Shown here one piece after another: positions 314 through 10,829 of a stretch of DNA of 64,000 nt; positions within the stretch are counted from its first letter, which is position 1; each line of letters begins with the position of its first letter. The DNA lies in the NCBI RefSeq assembly GCF_044324785.1, contig NZ_CP172127.1; one strand, 5' to 3'. The position numbers and the translations under genes are program-made. The DNA comes from Escherichia coli (GTDB lineage: Bacteria; Pseudomonadota; Gammaproteobacteria; Enterobacterales; Enterobacteriaceae). The notes below the pieces were generated by a model. The model worked only from the letters and a program-made list of their open reading frames with translations, had not been told where the DNA came from and searched no databases.

Positions 314-2005
314 ATGAAAACGCTGCTGATTATTGACGCTAATCTCGGTCAGGCACGCGCCTATATGGCGAAGACCCTGCTGGGCGCGGCGGCGCGAAAA
401 GCAAAACTGGAAATCATCGACAATCCGAACGACGCTGAAATGGCGATTGTTCTCGGTGATTCCATCCCGAACGACAGCGCGCTGAACGGTAAAAATGTCT
501 GGCTGGGCGATATTTCCCGGGCAGTTGCGCACCCTGAGCTGTTCCTGAGTGAAGCCAAAGGCCATGCGAAACCTTACACTGCGCCGGTCGCTGCGGCAGC
601 ACCGGTTGCCGCCAGCGGTCCGAAACGCGTAGTTGCGGTGACTGCTTGCCCGACTGGCGTAGCACACACCTTTATGGCGGCTGAAGCCATTGAAACCGAA
701 GCGAAAAAACGTGGCTGGTGGGTGAAAGTTGAAACCCGTGGTTCGGTTGGCGCGGGTAATGCAATCACCCCTGAAGAAGTAGCCGCAGCGGATCTGGTGA
801 TTGTGGCGGCAGATATTGAAGTGGATCTGGCGAAATTTGCTGGTAAACCGATGTATCGCACCTCTACCGGTCTGGCGCTGAAGAAAACCGCGCAGGAGCT
901 GGATAAAGCGGTTGCTGAAGCAACGCCGTATGAACCGGCGGGCAAAGCTCAAACGGCGACCACTGAAGGTAAGAAAGAGAGTGCAGGCGCTTATCGTCAC
1001 TTGCTGACGGGCGTTTCTTACATGCTGCCGATGGTCGTTGCAGGTGGTCTGTGTATCGCGCTTTCCTTTGCTTTTGGTATCGAAGCGTTTAAAGAGCCGG
1101 GTACGTTGGCAGCGGCGCTGATGCAGATTGGTGGTGGTTCAGCCTTTGCGCTGATGGTGCCGGTACTGGCAGGTTATATTGCCTTCTCCATTGCCGATCG
1201 TCCGGGTCTCACGCCGGGTCTGATTGGCGGTATGCTGGCGGTCAGCACTGGTTCTGGCTTCATTGGCGGTATTATTGCGGGCTTCCTGGCTGGTTACATT
1301 GCGAAGTTAATCAGTACGCAATTGAAACTGCCACAGAGTATGGAGGCGCTGAAACCGATTCTGATCATTCCGCTAATTTCCAGTCTGGTGGTCGGTCTGG
1401 CGATGATCTACCTGATCGGTAAACCGGTTGCTGGCATTCTCGAAGGGTTGACTCACTGGCTGCAGACCATGGGGACTGCGAATGCGGTTCTGCTGGGGGC
1501 GATCCTCGGTGGCATGATGTGTACTGACATGGGCGGTCCGGTAAACAAAGCAGCGTACGCGTTCGGTGTGGGTCTGCTGAGTACTCAAACCTATGGCCCG
1601 ATGGCGGCGATTATGGCGGCAGGTATGGTGCCACCGCTGGCAATGGGCCTGGCAACAATGGTGGCGCGTCGCAAATTCGACAAAGCGCAGCAGGAAGGGG
1701 GCAAAGCCGCTCTGGTATTGGGACTGTGCTTCATTTCGGAAGGTGCAATTCCGTTTGCTGCTCGTGATCCGATGCGTGTGCTGCCGTGCTGTATCGTGGG
1801 TGGGGCGCTGACTGGCGCAATCTCAATGGCGATTGGTGCGAAACTGATGGCACCGCACGGTGGTCTGTTTGTTCTGCTGATCCCTGGCGCGATTACGCCG
1901 GTATTGGGTTACCTGGTAGCCATTATTGCCGGTACGCTGGTGGCGGGTCTGGCCTATGCCTTCCTGAAACGTCCGGAAGTGGACGCAGTAGCGAAAGTAG
2001 CTTAA
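314..2005 (+). CDS. fruA: PTS fructose-specific EIIB'BC component
   Basis: 563-aa ORF with ATG start and SD caggagagg; N-terminal IIB-like domains followed by polytopic hydrophobic IIC domain; length matches K-12 FruA. Confidence 0.93.
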   Translation: MKTLLIIDANLGQARAYMAKTLLGAAARKAKLEIIDNPNDAEMAIVLGDSIPNDSALNGKNVWLGDISRAVAHPELFLSEAKGHAKPYTAPVAAAAPVAASGPKRVVAVTACPTGVAHTFMAAEAIETEAKKRGWWVKVETRGSVGAGNAITPEEVAAADLVIVAADIEVDLAKFAGKPMYRTSTGLALKKTAQELDKAVAEATPYEPAGKAQTATTEGKKESAGAYRHLLTGVSYMLPMVVAGGLCIALSFAFGIEAFKEPGTLAAALMQIGGGSAFALMVPVLAGYIAFSIADRPGLTPGLIGGMLAVSTGSGFIGGIIAGFLAGYIAKLISTQLKLPQSMEALKPILIIPLISSLVVGLAMIYLIGKPVAGILEGLTHWLQTMGTANAVLLGAILGGMMCTDMGGPVNKAAYAFGVGLLSTQTYGPMAAIMAAGMVPPLAMGLATMVARRKFDKAQQEGGKAALVLGLCFISEGAIPFAARDPMRVLPCCIVGGALTGAISMAIGAKLMAPHGGLFVLLIPGAITPVLGYLVAIIAGTLVAGLAYAFLKRPEVDAVAKVA

Positions 2006-2042: not shown

Positions 2043-2159
2043 TATCATTTGAAGATCGCAAGGTGACTGACTAGTTCTTGAGGGTAACTATATGAATTTT
2101 ATGTTTTTATCTTTAAGTTGAAACCAGAAATCTCATCAAACGTTAATGTTATTTCCTCA

Positions 2160-2187
2160 AGGGCAGATTATTTTCTGCCCTTTTTTA
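2160..2187 (+). terminator. Rho-independent terminator (stem agggcaga/tctgccct followed by TTTTTT)
   Basis: GC-rich 8-bp stem plus 6-T run read directly; stem sequence nearly identical to the hairpin at 2020-2042. Confidence 0.6.
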
Positions 2188-2323
2188 TTGTTCCTGTTCT
2201 GTGCATCCCGTCACAAATTCCCCGTTTTTATAATTCAGGCATTTAATCGCGTTTTGTGAGCCTGCTCAAATCTGCCCATTTTGCCTCTCTGGCGGTAATT
2301 TACTTTACGTAAAACATGCATAC

Positions 2324-2359
2324 TATGAGCACATGTTTAAATATGAACACATGTTTAAA
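2324..2359. repeat. Tandem 18-bp direct repeat (tatgaGcacatgtttaaa / tatgaAcacatgtttaaa) about 70 bp upstream of psuK
   Basis: 17/18 identical adjacent copies, each containing the palindrome ACATGT; candidate regulator binding sites in the psuK promoter. Confidence 0.7.
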
Positions 2360-2426
2360 CCGTCTTTGCAGTATCAATATTCTTGTGGATTGACAGGGTT
2401 GGTAATTTTTTACCAGAGGACGTGCT

Positions 2427-3368
2427 ATGCGCGAAAAGGATTATGTCGTAATTATAGGTTCGGCGAATATTGATGTCGCCGGATATTCACATGAATCATT
2501 AAATTATGCGGATTCAAATCCAGGTAAAATAAAATTTACGCCTGGTGGAGTCGGGCGCAATATTGCACAAAACCTGGCGTTGCTGGGGAACAAAGCCTGG
2601 CTACTGAGCGCCGTAGGCAGTGATTTTTATGGTCAATCGCTGCTAACGCAAACCAATCAATCTGGCGTTTATGTCGATAAATGCCTGATAGTGCCGGGAG
2701 AAAATACGTCAAGCTATTTATCATTACTCGATAATACCGGTGAAATGCTGGTTGCTATAAATGACATGAATATTAGCAACGCTATTACAGCTGAATATCT
2801 CGCACAGCACCGTGAATTTATTCAGAGGGCAAAGGTCATTGTCGCAGACTGTAATATCAGTGAAGAGGCACTGGCATGGATTCTGGATAATGCCGCCAAC
2901 GTACCTGTATTTGTCGATCCTGTTTCCGCGTGGAAATGTGTCAAAGTGCGCGACCGTCTAAATCAAATCCACACTCTCAAGCCAAACCGCCTTGAAGCGG
3001 AAACCCTGAGTGGGATTGCGCTGTCAGGGCGTGAAGATGTGGCAAAAGTTGCTGCCTGGTTCCATCAACATGGCCTGAACCGACTGGTATTGAGCATGGG
3101 CGGCGACGGCGTTTATTACAGCGATATCAGCGGTGAAAGTGGCTGGTCTGCGCCGATCAAAACCAATGTTATTAATGTTACCGGAGCGGGCGATGCCATG
3201 ATGGCGGGGCTTGCTTCGTGTTGGGTAGACGGAATGCCGTTTGCCGAATCTGTTCGTTTCGCACAGGGATGTTCGTCAATGGCGCTCTCCTGTGAATACA
3301 CCAATAACCCCGATTTATCGATTGCCAACGTTATATCGTTAGTGGAGAACGCAGAATGTCTGAATTAA
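2427..3368 (+). CDS. psuK: Pseudouridine kinase (PfkB family)
   Basis: 313 aa; GAGDAMMAG PfkB signature; SD agagga; position and length as K-12 PsuK (YeiC). Confidence 0.9.
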   Translation: MREKDYVVIIGSANIDVAGYSHESLNYADSNPGKIKFTPGGVGRNIAQNLALLGNKAWLLSAVGSDFYGQSLLTQTNQSGVYVDKCLIVPGENTSSYLSLLDNTGEMLVAINDMNISNAITAEYLAQHREFIQRAKVIVADCNISEEALAWILDNAANVPVFVDPVSAWKCVKVRDRLNQIHTLKPNRLEAETLSGIALSGREDVAKVAAWFHQHGLNRLVLSMGGDGVYYSDISGESGWSAPIKTNVINVTGAGDAMMAGLASCWVDGMPFAESVRFAQGCSSMALSCEYTNNPDLSIANVISLVENAECLN

Positions 3369-4294
3369 AAATTTCCCCTGAATTATTACAAATTTCCCCA
3401 GAAGTGCAGGACGCTTTAAAAAACAAAAAACCGATCGTGGCGCTGGAATCGACCATTATTTCTCACGGGATGCCGTTCCCACAAAATGCCCAGACCGCAA
3501 TTGAAGTTGAAGAAACTATTCGTAAACAGGGCGCGGTACCTGCCACTATCGCCATTATTGGCGGCGTGATGAAAGTGGGTTTAAGCAAAGAAGAAATTGA
3601 ATTGCTGGGTCGTGAAGGGCATAACGTGACCAAAGTTAGTCGTCGCGATTTACCTTTTGTTGTTGCCGCAGGGAAAAATGGCGCAACCACCGTTGCTTCA
3701 ACGATGATTATTGCGGCGCTTGCCGGAATTAGAGTATTTGCCACCGGGGGAATTGGTGGTGTGCATCGCGGGGCGGAACATACCTTCGATATTTCTGCCG
3801 ATTTGCAAGAGCTGGCAAATACTAATGTCACCGTTGTTTGTGCCGGGGCGAAATCTATTCTCGATTTAGGATTAACCACTGAGTATTTAGAAACTTTCGG
3901 TGTACCGCTAATTGGCTATCAGACCAAAGCGCTGCCTGCGTTTTTCTGCCGTACCAGCCCGTTTGACGTCAGCATTCGTCTCGACAGCGCCAGTGAAATT
4001 GCCCGTGCAATGGCGGTGAAATGGCAAAGCGGGCTGAACGGTGGCCTCGTGGTAGCGAACCCGATCCCGGAACAGTTTGCGATGCCGGAGGAATCTATCA
4101 ATGCAGCCATAGATCAAGCCGTCGCCGAAGCCGAAGAGCAGGGCGTTATTGGTAAAGAAAGCACACCGTTCCTGCTGGCTCGTGTTGCTGAACTGACTGG
4201 CGGTGACAGCCTGAAATCCAACATCCAGCTGGTGTTCAACAACGCCATTCTGGCGAGCGAAATTGCCAAAGAATATCAGCGTCTCGCGGGTTAA
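3356..4294 (+). CDS. psuG: Pseudouridine-5'-phosphate glycosidase
   Basis: 312 aa, overlaps psuK stop by 13 nt (translational coupling); length and position as K-12 PsuG (YeiN). Confidence 0.9.
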   Translation: MSELKISPELLQISPEVQDALKNKKPIVALESTIISHGMPFPQNAQTAIEVEETIRKQGAVPATIAIIGGVMKVGLSKEEIELLGREGHNVTKVSRRDLPFVVAAGKNGATTVASTMIIAALAGIRVFATGGIGGVHRGAEHTFDISADLQELANTNVTVVCAGAKSILDLGLTTEYLETFGVPLIGYQTKALPAFFCRTSPFDVSIRLDSASEIARAMAVKWQSGLNGGLVVANPIPEQFAMPEESINAAIDQAVAEAEEQGVIGKESTPFLLARVAELTGGDSLKSNIQLVFNNAILASEIAKEYQRLAG

Positions 4295-4321
4295 TTTCTG
4301 ACGGGCAGAAAGCCGTCGCCC
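4294..4321 (+). promoter_or_regulatory. Conserved 28-nt leader element (atttctgaCgggcagaaagccgtcgccc) with 5-bp stem hairpin, upstream of psuT
   Basis: 27/28 identical to the element at 7522-7549 upstream of the paralog nupX. Confidence 0.5.
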
Positions 4322-4387
4322 GTACTCATCAAGCATACCAAAACCTGGCGCTGACGCCGGGTTTACTGGCATGAAGGGAAAATCATT

Positions 4388-5638
4388 ATGGATATAATGA
4401 GAAGTGTTGTGGGGATGGTGGTGTTACTGGCAATAGCATTTCTGTTGTCAGTGAATAAAAAGAGCATCAGTTTGCGCACGGTTGGAGCCGCACTGCTGCT
4501 GCAAATTGCCATTGGTGGCATCATGCTCTATTTTCCGCCGGGAAAATGGGCAGTAGAACAGGCGGCATTAGGCGTTCATAAAGTGATGTCTTACAGTGAT
4601 GCCGGTAGCGCCTTCATTTTTGGTTCGCTGGTCGGGCCGAAAATGGATGTCCTCTTTGACGGTGCGGGTTTTATCTTTGCCTTTCGCGTACTCCCGGCGA
4701 TTATCTTCGTCACTGCGCTCATCAGCCTGCTGTACTACATTGGCGTGATGGGGCTGCTAATCCGCATTCTTGGCAGTATTTTTCAGAAAGCCCTCAACAT
4801 CAGCAAAATCGAATCTTTTGTTGCGGTTACTACTATTTTCCTCGGGCAAAATGAGATCCCGGCGATCGTAAAACCGTTTATCGATCGCATGAATCGCAAC
4901 GAGCTATTTACGGCAATTTGTAGCGGGATGGCGTCCATTGCCGGTTCGATGATGATTGGTTATGCCGGAATGGGCGTACCAATTGACTACCTGTTAGCGG
5001 CATCGCTGATGGCGATCCCTGGTGGTATTTTGTTTGCACGTATTCTTAGCCCAGCCACCGAGCCTTCGCAGGTGACATTTGAAAATCTGTCGTTCAGCGA
5101 AACGCCGCCAAAAAGCTTTATCGAAGCAGCGGCGAGCGGTGCGATGACCGGGTTGAAAATCGCCGCTGGTGTGGCGACGGTGGTAATGGCGTTTGTCGCA
5201 ATTATTGCGCTGATCAACGGTATTATCGGCGGAATTGGCGGCTGGTTTGGTTTTGCCAATGCCTCTCTGGAAAGTATTTTTGGCTATGTGCTGGCACCGC
5301 TGGCGTGGATCATGGGTGTGGACTGGAGTGATGCCAACCTGGCGGGTAGCCTGATTGGGCAGAAACTGGCGATTAACGAATTCGTCGCTTACCTGAGTTT
5401 CTCCCCATACCTGCAAACGGGCGGCACGCTGGAAGTGAAAACCATTGCGATTATCTCCTTTGCGCTTTGTGGTTTTGCTAACTTTGGTTCTATCGGTGTT
5501 GTCGTTGGCGCATTTTCGGCTATTTCGCCAAAACGCGCACCGGAAATCGCCCAGCTTGGTTTACGGGCGCTGGCAGCTGCCACGCTTTCCAACCTGATGA
5601 GCGCGACTATTGCCGGGTTCTTTATTGGTTTAGCTTGA
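4388..5638 (+). CDS. psuT: NupC-family nucleoside (pseudouridine) transporter
   Basis: 416 aa polytopic membrane protein, about 85 percent identical by eye to the nupX product in this window; length as K-12 PsuT (YeiM). Confidence 0.9.
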   Translation: MDIMRSVVGMVVLLAIAFLLSVNKKSISLRTVGAALLLQIAIGGIMLYFPPGKWAVEQAALGVHKVMSYSDAGSAFIFGSLVGPKMDVLFDGAGFIFAFRVLPAIIFVTALISLLYYIGVMGLLIRILGSIFQKALNISKIESFVAVTTIFLGQNEIPAIVKPFIDRMNRNELFTAICSGMASIAGSMMIGYAGMGVPIDYLLAASLMAIPGGILFARILSPATEPSQVTFENLSFSETPPKSFIEAAASGAMTGLKIAAGVATVVMAFVAIIALINGIIGGIGGWFGFANASLESIFGYVLAPLAWIMGVDWSDANLAGSLIGQKLAINEFVAYLSFSPYLQTGGTLEVKTIAIISFALCGFANFGSIGVVVGAFSAISPKRAPEIAQLGLRALAAATLSNLMSATIAGFFIGLA

Positions 5639-5705: not shown

Positions 5706-6365
5706 TTACTGCATCATCCCGGAGAATTTATTCTCCGGGTCCATCTCCAGTGCCAGTCCTGACAACTGCTTTCTGTTTTTAATTAGATACCCTTTCTTGC
5801 TTTTAATTAATAAACCGTCGTGAATGAATTGCGCGAGAACATATAAAAGATGTCGATAAGAAACGCCTAAATACTCTGCCGCTTGCGTATGCTTTTCGTG
5901 ATAAAGATCACCTTCCTGCGAGAGTAATATAAAAGCTGCCAGGCGATTCACTAATGGAAATGATTGATTCTGAGTTAAAGAAACAATATTACGATAATTT
6001 TTATGACTTAAGGTGACGCAGAGTTTTCGTAAAAATAGCGTGTCGTTTAATAACAGCGGGCGGTAATGTTTCATAGGGAGCGCAAGGCACCAACACTCTT
6101 CAATAGCCTGCACCGCACGCGGTTCATGGTCTTTGTCGATTAACTCAATCTCGCCAATAAAACAGGGGGCGGCAAAGAAATCGATCAGCGACACGCGACC
6201 ATTAGCTAGCGTGGCGTAAAGCCTGGCGCGGCCTCGCGTCAGGTAAAACAGCCAGGACGGCTGTTGCCCTTCCTGCACAATGTAGTCACGCGCTAAAAAA
6301 TGAAACAGCCGCGTATCGGCTGAAACATCCGTTGAAAAGCAATCCTTAAACGCGGATTCACTCAT
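5706..6365 (-). CDS. yeiL: CRP/FNR-family transcriptional regulator
   Basis: ORF-track 232-aa frame begins at GTG; internal ATG at 6365 gives 219 aa (MSESAFKD...) matching the K-12 YeiL length; cNMP-binding-like fold plus C-terminal HTH. Confidence 0.85.
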
Positions 6366-6418
6366 CAATTGCTGCTTAAGATCATTATTGTGGATTTCTT
6401 TCACGATGTTTATCCGCT

Positions 6419-6533: not shown

Positions 6534-7475
6534 ATGGAAAAGAGAAAAATTATTCTGGATTGTGATCCGGGTCATGATGATGCTATTGCAATGATGATGG
6601 CAGCGAAACATCCGGCGATTGATTTATTAGGTATCACCATTGTAGCGGGTAATCAGACGCTTGATAAAACATTAATTAATGGCCTGAATGTTTGCCAGAA
6701 ACTGGAGATTAATGTTCCGGTTTATGCGGGGATGCCACAGCCCATTATGCGGCAACAAATTGTTGCCGATAATATTCACGGTGAAACCGGACTGGATGGC
6801 CCGGTATTCGAGCCGCTGACCCGCCAGGCAGAAAGCACTCATGCGGTGAAATATATCATCGATACCCTGATGGCAAGCGATGGCGATATCACTCTGGTGC
6901 CGGTTGGTCCGCTTTCAAATATCGCGGTGGCAATGCGTATGCAACCCGCGATCCTGCCCAAAATCCGTGAAATTGTGCTAATGGGCGGCGCTTACGGTAC
7001 AGGCAACTTCACCCCATCTGCCGAGTTCAACATCTTTGCCGACCCGGAAGCCGCACGCGTGGTGTTCACCTCCGGCGTTCCGTTGGTGATGATGGGCCTC
7101 GATCTCACCAACCAGACTGTTTGCACCCCGGACGTGATTGCCCGGATGGAAAGGGTAGGCGGCCCCGCCGGAGAGCTGTTCAGCGACATCATGAATTTCA
7201 CTCTAAAAACGCAGTTCGAAAACTACGGCCTGGCTGGCGGCCCGGTGCATGACGCCACCTGCATCGGTTATCTGATTAACCCTGATGGCATTAAAACCCA
7301 GGAGATGTACGTCGAAGTGGACGTTAACAGCGGCCCTTGCTACGGGCGTACGGTCTGCGACGAGCTGGGCGTTCTTGGCAAGCCCGCCAATACCAAAGTC
7401 GGCATCACTATTGATACCGACTGGTTCTGGGGATTAGTCGAAGAGTGCGTGCGCGGCTACATCAAAACCCATTAA
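6534..7475 (+). CDS. rihB: Pyrimidine-specific ribonucleoside hydrolase
   Basis: 313 aa; N-terminal DCDPGHDD nucleoside-hydrolase motif. Confidence 0.9.
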
Positions 7476-7574: not shown

Positions 7575-8825
7575 ATGGATGTCATGAGAAGTGTTCTGGG
7601 AATGGTGGTATTGCTGGCAATTGCGTTTTTGCTGTCAGTAAACAAGAAGAAGATCAGCCTGCGTACCGTTGGCGCGGCGTTAGTGTTACAGGTCGTGATT
7701 GGCGGCATTATGCTTTGGTTACCGCCAGGGCGTTGGGTCGCAGAAAAAGTCGCTTTTGGCGTGCATAAAGTGATGGCGTACAGCGACGCGGGTAGCGCAT
7801 TTATCTTTGGTTCTCTGGTCGGACCGAAAATGGACACCTTATTTGATGGCGCAGGATTTATCTTTGGCTTCAGGGTATTACCGGCAATTATCTTCGTTAC
7901 AGCACTGGTGAGTATTCTCTACTACATCGGTGTGATGGGGATCTTAATTCGAATTCTCGGCGGTATATTCCAGAAAGCATTGAATATCAGCAAGATCGAG
8001 TCATTCGTCGCGGTTACTACCATTTTCCTCGGGCAAAACGAAATTCCGGCAATCGTCAAACCCTTTATCGATCGTCTGAATCGCAATGAATTATTTACAG
8101 CGATTTGTAGTGGCATGGCCTCGATTGCTGGTTCGACAATGATTGGTTATGCCGCTCTGGGCGTGCCTGTGGAATATCTGCTGGCGGCATCGTTAATGGC
8201 GATCCCCGGCGGGATCTTGTTTGCCCGCCTGTTAAGCCCGGCTACCGAATCTTCGCAGGTTTCCTTTAATAACCTCTCTTTCACCGAAACACCGCCAAAA
8301 AGCATTATTGAAGCCGCCGCTACAGGGGCAATGACCGGGCTGAAAATCGCAGCAGGTGTGGCGACAGTGGTGATGGCATTTGTTGCCATCATTGCGTTGA
8401 TTAACGGAATTATCGGCGGCGTTGGCGGCTGGTTTGGTTTTGAACATGCCTCGCTGGAGTCAATTTTAGGTTATCTGTTGGCTCCACTGGCGTGGGTGAT
8501 GGGGGTTGACTGGAGTGATGCGAATCTTGCCGGGAGTTTGATTGGACAGAAACTGGCGATTAATGAATTTGTCGCTTACCTCAATTTCTCACCTTATCTG
8601 CAAACAGCTGGCACTCTGGATGCTAAAACCGTGGCGATTATTTCTTTCGCGTTGTGCGGTTTCGCTAACTTTGGTTCTATCGGGGTGGTGGTTGGCGCAT
8701 TTTCTGCGGTTGCGCCACACCGTGCACCGGAAATCGCCCAGCTTGGTTTACGCGCGCTGGCGGCGGCGACACTTTCTAACCTGATGAGTGCCACCATTGC
8801 AGGATTCTTTATTGGCTTAGCGTAG
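7575..8825 (+). CDS. nupX: NupC-family nucleoside transporter
   Basis: 416 aa, paralog of psuT. Confidence 0.9.
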   Translation: MDVMRSVLGMVVLLAIAFLLSVNKKKISLRTVGAALVLQVVIGGIMLWLPPGRWVAEKVAFGVHKVMAYSDAGSAFIFGSLVGPKMDTLFDGAGFIFGFRVLPAIIFVTALVSILYYIGVMGILIRILGGIFQKALNISKIESFVAVTTIFLGQNEIPAIVKPFIDRLNRNELFTAICSGMASIAGSTMIGYAALGVPVEYLLAASLMAIPGGILFARLLSPATESSQVSFNNLSFTETPPKSIIEAAATGAMTGLKIAAGVATVVMAFVAIIALINGIIGGVGGWFGFEHASLESILGYLLAPLAWVMGVDWSDANLAGSLIGQKLAINEFVAYLNFSPYLQTAGTLDAKTVAIISFALCGFANFGSIGVVVGAFSAVAPHRAPEIAQLGLRALAAATLSNLMSATIAGFFIGLA

Positions 8826-8880: not shown

Positions 8881-9969
8881 TTACACCATCGGCACTAATG
8901 AAAGCGCGTTTTCGGCAGACAGGGTAGGGTTGTTTAAGCTGCCGCTGGCGCGTGAAATTGCCGCGCAGGCCATCGCAAAACGGGCGCTGTCACGGAAATT
9001 GTTTCCCTCCAGAAAGCTATATACCAGGCCCGCCATAAAACCATCGTCAGCACCAAAACTGTCTACTGTCGTATGCGCTGGCGCTGTCAGCAAAAATTGT
9101 TCTCCATCCTTTTCGCTGCAATAAACTGACTCATCGGGCAAATAAACAAACAGTTGCTGAACACCTTGCTGATGCAACGTATTCACTGCGGCATTACGGT
9201 CAGCATCGCTGGTGATCGCCTGTCCCCATAAAATTTCCAGCTCCGGTAAAGTGGGTTTCAGGGTGTGAATATGCGCCAGCCAGTGTTTGATTTTGCCCGC
9301 TTTGAATTCTGAAACGGTATCGACAAACACCGGGATTTCATCAGCGAGGGTAAAGACCCACTCCAGCGCCTCGGCTGTCAGGTTGCAATCAGCAAGTACC
9401 ACGCCCGCATGACGAAGTAAATCGCGCGACCCGTTCAGTAGTTGCGGTGTCAACTGATCCAGCAGATGGGTATCGTTAATCGCCAGCACGGTTTGATCGT
9501 CTCGATTGGCAATTGCCAGATACGTCGATGTGCTTTGACCATGTAAACGAACGCAGCCGGAGACATTCACGCCGGCGCGGCGCGTTTCTTCCAGGAGCAT
9601 TTCGCCATAAAAGTCATCGCCAATCACTGAAAGCAAATGGACGTCGCGGCCTAACAGCGCCAAATTGTGGGCGATATTGCGCCCCACGCCGCCCGCCGAG
9701 CAATGAATTGTACCGGGATGAGAAGCCGCTTGCGGGTAACGGATATCCGCCATCCCGCGAATATCCATATTGATTGTCCCCACCACTACGCAGTATTCCT
9801 GCTCGGTGAGAATGTAACCTTTGCCTTTAATTCGACCTTTGCGCATTAAATCCATAATATGCGCCGCAACGCGCGAACGGCTGATTTGCAGCATATCAGC
9901 AATTTCGTTCTGCTGAATCAGCGGGTTACGCCGTAAAATTGCAAGGATCTCCTTCTCCCGGTTGTTCAT
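8881..9969 (-). CDS. yeiI: HTH-domain fused to PfkB-family (PsuK-like) sugar/nucleoside kinase
   Basis: 362 aa; N-terminal winged-helix segment (EILAILRRNPLIQQNEIADMLQISRSRVAAHI) then kinase domain with GGVGRNIAHNLA motif. Confidence 0.85.
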   Translation of the reverse strand: MNNREKEILAILRRNPLIQQNEIADMLQISRSRVAAHIMDLMRKGRIKGKGYILTEQEYCVVVGTINMDIRGMADIRYPQAASHPGTIHCSAGGVGRNIAHNLALLGRDVHLLSVIGDDFYGEMLLEETRRAGVNVSGCVRLHGQSTSTYLAIANRDDQTVLAINDTHLLDQLTPQLLNGSRDLLRHAGVVLADCNLTAEALEWVFTLADEIPVFVDTVSEFKAGKIKHWLAHIHTLKPTLPELEILWGQAITSDADRNAAVNTLHQQGVQQLFVYLPDESVYCSEKDGEQFLLTAPAHTTVDSFGADDGFMAGLVYSFLEGNNFRDSARFAMACAAISRASGSLNNPTLSAENALSLVPMV

Positions 9970-9971
9970 CT

Positions 9972-10829
9972 TCAGGCTACCGCTTTTTCAGTTTGTTGCG
10001 CTTTCAGCCAGGCGATCTCTTCTGCCCAGATATCCGGGTTGATGGTTTCAAGGATCAGCGGAATGCCGTCGAAACGGTCGTCCTGCATGATCCAGCGGAA
10101 CGCATCATGACCGATATTGCCTTCACCGAGGCTATGATGGCGGTCAACGCGGCTGCCAAAGGTGCTTTTCGCATCGTTAAGGTGCATCCCGCGCAGATAC
10201 TTAAAGCCGACAATACGGGCAAAATCAGCGAACGTTTTCTCGCATTCGGCTGGAGTACGCAAATCATACCCGGCAGCAAAAGCATGGCAGGTATCAATGC
10301 AGACGCCGACGCGGGATTTATCTTCCACGCCGTCGATAATCGCCGCGAGATGTTCGAATTTAAACCCTAAGTTACTGCCCTGACCGGCGGTGTTTTCAAT
10401 CACCGCTGTTACACCTTGAGTTTTATCCAGCGCAATGTTGATGGATTCAGCAATACGCGCAAGGCAATCCTCTTCTGAAATCTGCATCAGATGGCTGCCA
10501 GGGTGGAAGTTGAGCAAAGAAAGCCCCAGCTGTTCGCAACGCTGCATTTCATCTATAAACGCATCGCGCGATTTTTCCAGAGCTTCAGCGACCGGATGTC
10601 CGAGGTTAATCAGATAACTGTCGTGGGGAAGAATTTGCGCCGATGTGTAGTGATATTTTTCACAGGCGGCTTTGAATTCATCGATGGTTTGCGTCGTGAG
10701 CGGTGCGGCACGCCACTGACGTTGGTTTTTGGTGAACAAGGCAAACGCGGTTGCGTCGATTTCGGCGGCGCGAATTGCGGCATTTGCCAGACCGCCAGCA
10801 GCACTAACGTGCGCTCCAATGTATTTCAT
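9972..10829 (-). CDS. nfo: Endonuclease IV (AP endonuclease)
   Basis: 285 aa, length and neighbourhood as K-12 Nfo; TIM-barrel AP endonuclease family. Confidence 0.92.

Follow-up and report, generated by a model that had tools for sequence, protein, structure and literature searches.

Enzyme-derived repressors with an N-terminal helix-turn-helix (HTH), the so-called 'trigger enzymes', include BirA, NadR, and the ROK-family proteins NagC and Mlc. Among classical repressors, the boxes of LexA, TrpR, and PurR are tandem dyad operators over the -10/+1 region, and the nucleoside promoters of the CytR/CRP regulon have CRP sites at -40.5 and -93.5. Pseudouridine is among the most abundant modified nucleosides from RNA turnover, and its salvage genes in Escherichia coli are known, whereas their control is not. 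The present analysis concerns a tandem repeat upstream of these genes, the operon psuKGT, in a stretch of 64,000 nucleotides (the window) of the E. coli contig NZ_CP172127.1 from assembly GCF_044324785.1. It also concerns YeiI, a protein with an HTH and a PfkB-type kinase domain, encoded convergently next to the operon. The repeat contains a pair of short dyads on the predicted psuKGT core promoter. Sequence comparison suggests that these are probably the operators of a repressor, with YeiI as the most likely repressor.

Similar to BirA, NadR, and NagC/Mlc, YeiI would combine an enzyme fold with an N-terminal HTH, use its substrate pocket as a sensor, and have operators on the promoter of its own pathway. 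In contrast to BirA, NadR, and the ROK proteins, its sensor has the PfkB (ribokinase-like) fold instead of that of a biotin ligase, a nicotinamide mononucleotide adenylyltransferase, or ASKHA/ROK, and its ligand would be a modified nucleoside. In the literature searched, no regulatory study of HTH-PfkB proteins was found. Like the LexA, TrpR, and PurR boxes, the psuK sites are two short core-promoter dyads, and steric exclusion of RNA polymerase is proposed. The locus resembles the CytR/CRP promoters in having two CRP-like sites about 55 bp apart before a weak promoter of nucleoside catabolism and transport. It differs from them in that these sites lie at about -70.5 and -125.5, no CytR octamer stands out as conserved, and YeiI is not a LacI-family protein. 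The features that carry the argument are as follows.

2324-2341, plus strand: 18-bp repeat unit 1, TATGAGCACATGTTTAAA, from repeat detection; identical in K-12
2342-2359, plus strand: 18-bp repeat unit 2, TATGAACACATGTTTAAA, from repeat detection and an 18-mer scan of the window
2327-2338, no strand assigned: core of putative operator O1, GAGCACATGTTT, a dyad of the form RAACA-YR-TGTTY that adjoins the -10 hexamer and includes the predicted start; 16.7 bits by position weight matrix (PWM)
2345-2356, no strand assigned: core of putative operator O2, GAACACATGTTT; conservation 0.93, 18.2 bits by PWM
2299-2304, plus strand: predicted -35 hexamer TTTACT, with the conserved core ATTTAC; T2301 is the position of a recurrent single nucleotide polymorphism (SNP)
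2321-2326, plus strand: predicted -10 hexamer TACTAT, 16 bp after the -35 hexamer; TAnnAT in 13/13 sequences
2427-5638, plus strand: psuKGT operon (psuK 2427-3368, psuG 3356-4294, psuT 4388-5638)
8881-9969, minus strand: yeiI, the proposed regulator, with HTH_24 at residues 1-48 and PfkB at 58-348

The two units abut and match at 17 of 18 bases, and Tandem Repeats Finder reports a period of 18, 2.0 copies, and a score of 65. An earlier sequence-only reading of this DNA had described two adjacent near-identical 18-mers at 2324-2359, about 70 bp upstream of the psuK start. Both statements are accurate, with 68 bp between the end of the repeat and the ATG at 2427. With up to 3 mismatches allowed, the 18-mer occurs at two places in the window, which are the two repeat units; shuffled windows lead to an expectation of 0.06 matches, and none of 100 shuffles gave two or more. 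The repeat of E. coli K-12 MG1655 is the same at every base. The palindrome ACATGT, to which the sequence-only reading had drawn attention, is present in both units (2331-2336 and 2349-2354) but is off-register with respect to the dyad that is conserved, RAACA-YR-TGTTY. This dyad consensus is found in all lineages, with constant arms and a central dinucleotide of CA, TG, CG, or TA; a centre that changes between constant arms is the behaviour of a site for a two-fold symmetric protein. O2 of E. albertii, GAACATATGTTC, is a perfect palindrome. The centres of O1 and O2 are 18 bp apart, and 6 bp separate the dyads. The appearance of a 17/18 direct repeat is limited to the K-12-type haplotype and the Escherichia most closely related to it, and the 18-mers match at 12 of 18 positions in the second E. 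coli haplotype and in Citrobacter braakii (counted by eye in these two lineages). The functional core is taken to be the pair of 12-bp dyads rather than the direct repeat.

The psuK upstream regions of 11 other genomes were compared, consisting of Escherichia sp., E. whittamii, E. albertii, another E. coli, four Citrobacter, two Buttiauxella, and one Raoultella metagenome-assembled genome. The second E. coli haplotype, with a psuK of 81% nucleotide identity, was joined to them, and the resulting alignment of 13 sequences is gap-free through the promoter. Conservation was scored as the mean majority-base fraction per column with one sequence per lineage, over seven lineages of Escherichia, Citrobacter, Buttiauxella, and Raoultella. 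O1 scores 0.87 and O2 0.93, whereas the 6-bp spacer that separates them has 0.64 and the next 42 bp downstream have 0.76; the -35 and -10 hexamers and the CRP-like site reach 0.92-0.94. The conserved islands are the CRP-like site (2252-2273), ATTTAC (about 2298-2303), TAnnAT (2321-2326), and the two dyads (2327-2338 and 2345-2356). Both dyads are kept in the two E. coli haplotypes, E. albertii, Citrobacter, Buttiauxella, and Raoultella. This footprint across genera, with a drifting spacer and downstream flank, argues for the regulator binding that had been suggested for the repeat; the dyad cores are what is kept, whereas the whole 17/18 repeat is lineage-specific. The repeats are best regarded as real, evolutionarily conserved protein-binding sites at the start of the promoter.

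The conserved hexamers put the promoter at another place than had been supposed, namely with the repeats overlapping the -35 region of a promoter that uses TATCAAT as its -10. TATCAAT is indeed found at 2372-2378. As a -10 element it was rejected for lack of conservation: K-12 has TATCTAT, other Escherichia have CCTATAT, and other genera have nothing equivalent. In one E. coli, 14 bp are deleted directly in front of it. ACATGT, the -35 that TATCAAT would imply, was likewise rejected, with a match by inspection of 0/6 to TTGACA. The conserved pair is TTTACT/TACTAT, and the placement of the repeats on a -35 is not sustained. The ATTTAC core is unchanged in 12 of the 13 Enterobacteriaceae upstream regions, with GTTTAC in C. 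werkmanii, and by eye TTTACT also precedes the sites in Yersinia, Serratia, Photorhabdus, and Affinibrenneria. The wild-type -35/-10 pair matches at 8 of 12 positions, which is below the threshold of the promoter scanner, and the scan called no promoter on the plus strand. From the conserved hexamers and the SNP, we infer a transcription start near 2333, with which the sites would span about -6 to +24, i.e., the edge of the -10, the start, and the early transcribed region. Sites on the -10 and the start rather than on the -35 correspond to the geometry of a repressor.

The -35 hexamer carries a recurrent adaptive SNP. An A->C change between psuK and fruA is among the most reproducible targets of K-12 in the mouse gut and is always at position 2257444 of NC_000913.2 (PMC7518454, PMC9509342, PMC6731689, PMC10340439). 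The same A->C change occurs in 1,200-day stationary-phase cultures, in which breseq describes it as 'intergenic (-126/+297)' (PMC7858067). The mouse-gut work assigns the SNP to the promoter region of psuK, states that growth is altered, and lists psuK with genes whose expression such intergenic changes can alter. The K-12 psuK start is at 2259296, so that -126 is 2259422 in NC_000913.3, and the difference from 2257444 is 1978, which agrees with the offset of NC_000913.3 against NC_000913.2. The alignment of K-12 with the window has no indel here, and therefore the SNP is T2301 of the window, T->G in the sense of psuK. It changes the third base of TTTACT to give TTGACT and raises the -35 match from 4/6 to 5/6, and the mutant pair would score 9/12. 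The SNP lies 71 bp upstream of TATCAAT, in another -35. The TTGACT allele is also carried by 5 complete genomes, comprising the K-12 laboratory derivatives ER1821R, ER2683, S17-1, and ST18, and the pigeon isolate fEC.1; laboratory K-12 stocks are polymorphic at the -35 base behind psuK promoter strength.

The HTH_24 winged helix of YeiI (residues 1-48, Pfam, E = 2.3e-10) is fused to a PfkB domain that is 40% identical to PsuK, with YeiI 54-358 aligning with PsuK 2-306 at E = 2e-67. Among Enterobacteriaceae genera and both E. coli alleles, 91% of the HTH columns are invariant versus 71% of those in the kinase domain, and the predicted recognition helix, ISRSRVAAHIMDLMRKG, is invariant in this set. 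The recognition helix of HTH-PfkB proteins has the form SRSxVAxHIMxL or TRSSVAVHISNL. Proteins that align with YeiI over its full length fall into more than 100 clusters at 50% identity, and yeiI is present in 5422 of 5426 E. coli genomes. No structure of an HTH-PfkB protein was found in the PDB, and the best matches to the HTH were GerE-type and Lrp-type domains at E ~0.04-0.1.

In PsuK, Ser30 from a loop of the partner subunit recognises the N1 that is specific to pseudouridine, the base itself is recognised by Asn143 and Lys170, the ribose is held by Asn14, Asp16, and Asn45, and Asp256 is the catalytic base (PMC9061257, PMC9247573). The PsuK dimer closes from ~65 to ~51 Angstrom with pseudouridine, and not with uridine or cytidine (PMC9061257, PMC9247573). 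Equivalents of all these residues are kept in YeiI and in the fused HTH-PsuK proteins. When compared to the PsuK/PUKI pseudouridine kinase (PDB 7vkp and related entries), YeiI thus has every pseudouridine- and ribose-contacting residue, but it has an extra HTH of 50 residues and DSFGADD in place of NVTGAGD. PsuK and fused HTH-PsuK have NVTGAGD, whereas the YeiI clade that occurs beside a separate PsuK has DSFGADD or DPVGADE, a change that fits a split between enzyme and sensor.

Linkage of pseudouridine genes with yeiI or another HTH-PfkB gene is seen in all 22 examined loci that show both. In 14 of them, yeiI is convergent to psuKGT, and in 8 an HTH-PfkB gene lies immediately upstream of psuG; one further locus (L022) is too short to show the downstream gene and was left out of the count. 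HTH-PfkB is the first gene of the psuG operon in Yersinia kristensenii, Serratia proteamaculans, and Photorhabdus temperata, and likewise in Pasteurella testudinis, Aquitalea magnusonii, and one GC-rich contig. A NupC-type transporter often follows the HTH-PfkB and psuG genes in these operons. In Affinibrenneria salicis, a YeiI-type gene is convergent to psuK-psuG-psuT within a wholly different neighbourhood. The fused HTH-PsuK proteins of Yersinia, Serratia, and Aquitalea would combine the roles of enzyme and autoregulator, as BirA does.

The fused genes have two sites of the same kind and spacing directly before the real start codon, and the annotated HTH-psuK starts of Yersinia and Serratia are 9 codons too long. 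The twin sites are AGACACATGTTT-N6-AAACAAGTGTCC in Yersinia, AAACAAAAGTTG-N6-AAACAGGTGTTG in Pasteurella, AAACAAATGTTT-N7-AAACATTTGTTT in Aquitalea, and AAACAAATGTTT-N7-AAACATAAGTTT in locus L024. By eye, a -10-like hexamer adjoins the first site in Aquitalea and Affinibrenneria. Six independent loci (86 kb) were scanned in full with a PWM trained on Enterobacteriaceae sites only and given a neutral centre. Tandem pairs 17-20 bp apart were found in 4 of the 6 loci, each being the sole pair of its locus, where shuffles lead to an expectation of 0.083 over all six. The four pairs lie at about -33/-15 from the HTH-psuK start. The best pair-sum of the whole locus falls at the expected place in L024 (p = 0.000), L019 (p = 0.015), and L021 (p = 0.000). 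Linkage, conservation of the HTH, the ligand residues, and the motif before distant operons all point to YeiI, one of two candidate regulators named in the sequence-only reading. On this comparative evidence, YeiI is strongly favoured and the other candidate, YeiL, is disfavoured.

Firmicutes-like contigs also have psuG after HTH-PfkB (L023 and L025). Their elements lie right after a consensus TTGACA-N17-TATAAT and have an AAGCA half-site, with a second element 19 bp further on. A motif claim for these contigs was dropped, as the PWM was not significant in them. A longer palindrome of the same family, AACCAAACACTTGTTTGGTT, is found in Yersinia, Photorhabdus, and Serratia (L015 7753-7764, L018 5725-5736, and L016 near 7740), about 275 bp upstream of the HTH-psuK start and beside a CRP-like site. 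It may be a distal looping operator or part of a second promoter.

In the proposed mechanism, O1 would directly follow the -10 hexamer and O2 would cover about +13 to +24, and a dimeric repressor on O1 and O2 would block RNA polymerase. The most likely candidate for this repressor is YeiI, with its HTH, its PsuK-like PfkB domain, and its convergent gene next to the operon. Because YeiI keeps the ligand residues of PsuK and pseudouridine closes the PsuK dimer, pseudouridine (or its phosphate) in the kinase-like domain would re-orient the HTH pair, and the DNA would be released. The weak basal promoter, with its 4/6 -35, probably needs cAMP-CRP at TGTGA-N6-TCAAA near -70.5. After a duplication, PsuK would have served as the enzyme and YeiI as the sensor-repressor. 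The remaining elements of the fruA-psuK spacer and the neighbouring genes are listed here.

2252-2273, no strand assigned: CRP-like site TGTGA-N6-TCAAA, proposed from its consensus match alone; 14/22 columns invariant across genera, conservation 0.92
2200-2215, no strand assigned: second CRP-like site TGTGC-N6-TCACA, partly conserved (0.83), 55 bp upstream of the first
2159-2190, plus strand: predicted intrinsic-terminator-like hairpin with a T run, conserved in K-12
2312-2316, plus strand: AAACA half-site-like element (in AAAACAYGC), near-invariant columns inside the -35/-10 spacer
2400-2415, plus strand: hairpin TGGTAA-tttt-TTACCA, with its 3' arm ending at 2415 and the psuK Shine-Dalgarno GAGGA at 2416-2420
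314-2005, plus strand: fruA
5706-6404, minus strand: yeiL (CRP/FNR family), judged not to be the binder
6534-7475: rihB
7575-8825: nupX

The first CRP-like site has its centre at 2262.5, about -70.5 from the inferred start, which is a putative class I position, and the second is at about -125.5. The fused operons of Pasteurella, Photorhabdus, Yersinia, and Serratia have CRP-like sites upstream as well. The CRP genomic-SELEX (systematic evolution of ligands by exponential enrichment) paper makes no mention of psuK or yeiC (PMC3105977). The AAACA element lies 15 bp upstream of the left arm of O1 and resembles a lone half-site; it could be a third half-operator. The terminator-like hairpin would insulate the psuK promoter from fruBKA read-through. 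Upstream of it, 2006-2160 is hypervariable, with 77-86% identity to K-12 versus 97-100% in the flanking genes. This stretch is bounded by look-alike GC-rich hairpins (2019-2043 and 2159-2182) with mutually complementary arms, and haplotype 2 has repetitive extragenic palindromic (REP)-like elements in the matching stretch. The arms of the hairpin at 2400-2415 show a compensatory change: the K-12 type has GGTAA/TTACC, whereas Citrobacter, Buttiauxella, and E. coli haplotype 2 have GGCAA/TTGCC, and E. albertii is intermediate with a U.G pair. The hairpin has no match in Rfam, and it could stabilise the 5' untranslated region (5'-UTR), act in translation, or be a dyad that another factor binds as DNA.

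The window is 96.9% identical to K-12 over fruA-psuKGT-yeiL and has the opposite orientation to the K-12 plus strand. NCBIfam scores are 716 bits for pseudouridine kinase, 420 bits for YeiL, and 811 bits for the YeiI model, and the K-12 annotation agrees. The E. coli promoter occurs as the K-12-type haplotype in 4221-4225 complete genomes and as a second haplotype in 1200, altogether in 5425 of 5426. The two haplotypes of psuK, promoter, and yeiI are deep (~80% nucleotide identity). The second resembles E. albertii and is found in genomes including ATCC 11775, Nissle 1917, and NC101. Around 850 genomes have a K-12-type psuK together with the divergent yeiI allele, which implies recombination breakpoints between psuK and yeiI. 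psuT and nupX are paralogues with 88% identity, and in two second-haplotype loci that were viewed (L013 and L014) nupX is a mere remnant. At the E. albertii, Citrobacter, Buttiauxella, and Raoultella loci, yeiL, rihB, and nupX are absent and the convergent yeiI directly follows psuT, so the yeiL-rihB-nupX block looks as if it had been inserted or duplicated between psuT and yeiI specifically in Escherichia. The start of yeiI is 2 bp after the end of nfo (9969-9972), and yeiI is linked to nfo in all Enterobacteriaceae loci, and not in Affinibrenneria. An RpoD-holoenzyme SELEX peak lies between nfo and yeiI (PMC3946193), and yeiI may have its own constitutive promoter inside nfo.

Several observations weigh against YeiI as the repressor of a promoter built in this way. 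No report of YeiI DNA binding, knockout, or induction was found in the literature searched, which was without most subscription journals and curated regulon databases; it lists YeiI as a hypothetical transcription factor or an uncharacterised kinase and nothing more. Among the mutations listed in the available parts of the evolution datasets, none was seen in yeiI, and the same parts show the repressors frlR, srlR, dgoR, and glpR hit by loss of function. If YeiI were a simple repressor, loss of function of yeiI would be expected, since it is a far larger target than one base pair. The missing yeiI mutations fit only if pseudouridine in the niche already lifts repression and promoter strength is limiting, which is the most economical account. 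The parents of the long-term stationary-phase cultures already differ from the reference at the SNP base (PMC7858067), and part of the apparent parallelism of the SNP may be standing variation. In the supplements of two genome-wide studies of transcription starts (PMC4782308, PMC3415461), no entry was found for the expected coordinates or gene names. A PWM scan for an operator-like site near yeiI found none. The 64-kb window as a whole, including the surroundings of yeiI, nfo, yeiL, and rihB, has no further motif copies of at least 11 bits, and so gives no sign of autoregulation or of a wider local regulon. The Enterobacterial PWM is marginal in three Firmicutes-like contigs, with p = 0.06 in one and no best rank in the other two. 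Finally, a centre spacing of 18 bp is not an integral number of helical turns, and two dimers would sit on different faces of the helix.

These points bear on whether the dyads are operators of another repressor, with YeiI just a neighbouring kinase paralogue. Such an explanation gains from the lack of direct evidence for YeiI binding and from the yeiI losses not seen in the available parts of the evolution experiments, and the presence of yeiI in 5422 of 5426 E. coli genomes makes a presence/absence test powerless within the species. To our knowledge, RAACA-NN-TGTTY matches no motif of an E. coli regulator, and among the boxes of KdgR, GlpR/DeoR, Cra, PurR, NrdR, and Gram-positive LexA we know of none that fits in both register and taxonomy. 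The Gram-positive LexA 'Cheo box' is GAAC-N4-GTTC, while E. coli LexA recognises CTGT-N8-ACAG; the likeness of the motif to the Cheo box is treated as a coincidence. However, from Betaproteobacteria through Pasteurellaceae to Enterobacterales, no regulator-like gene other than that of the HTH-PfkB protein accompanies psuG and the twin sites, and the HTH of YeiI is more conserved than its enzyme domain, so another repressor is considered unlikely. The earlier proposal that the repeats overlap the -35 of a TATCAAT promoter and are bound by an activator or repressor such as YeiL can draw on the presence of TATCAAT and on a yeiL gene 3.3 kb away in E. coli. Against it, TATCAAT is unconserved within Escherichia, its implied -35 matches at 0/6, and the SNP lies in the other -35. 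In addition, the four groups from which yeiL is absent at the locus (a copy elsewhere in the genome is possible) retain both dyads and the CRP-like site. The 12-bp dyads with a 2-bp centre also differ from the 22-bp CRP/FNR sites, which have 5-bp arms 4-6 bp apart (TGTGA-N6-TCACA or TTGAT-N4-ATCAA). YeiL was rejected as the binder on both grounds and appears unlikely in that role, and the combination with the TATCAAT promoter has hardly any probability left.

A function in RNA would make O1 and O2, or the arms 2335-2345 and 2350-2360, a hairpin of the 5'-UTR that serves mRNA stability or translation. The fold of 2322-2365 has -9 kcal/mol (z = -2.6), and the inverted repeat I7 is 91% complementary, both of which speak for it. 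Yet the hairpin relies on the spacer and flank of the K-12 type, the sequences of Citrobacter, Buttiauxella, and E. albertii do not fold into it, and each site is dyad-symmetric by itself, which a hairpin does not need. A start near 2333 would leave O1 partly untranscribed, and in the fused-type genomes the sites lie around the promoter and the ribosome-binding site but have other flanks. The Rfam search gave no fitting family, its sole match being DapZ at E = 0.28, far below the gathering score. An RNA element is thus very unlikely. A neutral local duplication without function would account for the lineage-specific 17/18 identity of the whole units, but the dyad cores are kept across genera, in both E. 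coli haplotypes (4225 + 1200 of 5426), and across proteobacterial classes, so that the probability of this explanation is practically negligible.

The element type is ordinary, i.e., twin operators on a weak CRP-assisted promoter, and it is tied to an uncharacterised, widespread type of regulator, HTH-PfkB. A broader proposal, which we hold to be evenly balanced between right and wrong, is that HTH-PfkB proteins are widespread pseudouridine-sensing 'trigger enzymes'. In most bacteria, one protein would phosphorylate pseudouridine and auto-repress psuK-psuG via twin RAACA-NN-TGTTY sites. In Enterobacteriaceae, it would have split into PsuK, which lost the HTH, and YeiI, in which GAGD became GADD, and the SNP would strengthen the weak -35 of a repressed, CRP-assisted promoter. 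If the main explanation, with YeiI as the repressor on O1 and O2, is right, YeiI would be the missing switch of psuKGT, with its operators and probable inducer named, and the conserved y-gene yeiI would have a function. The recurrent SNP of the mouse gut and of starvation would be the improvement of the -35 of a repressed promoter from TTTACT to TTGACT. The system would also be a natural pseudouridine-responsive switch, with possible use as a biosensor for the pseudouridine production strains that are at present engineered for the supply of mRNA vaccines.

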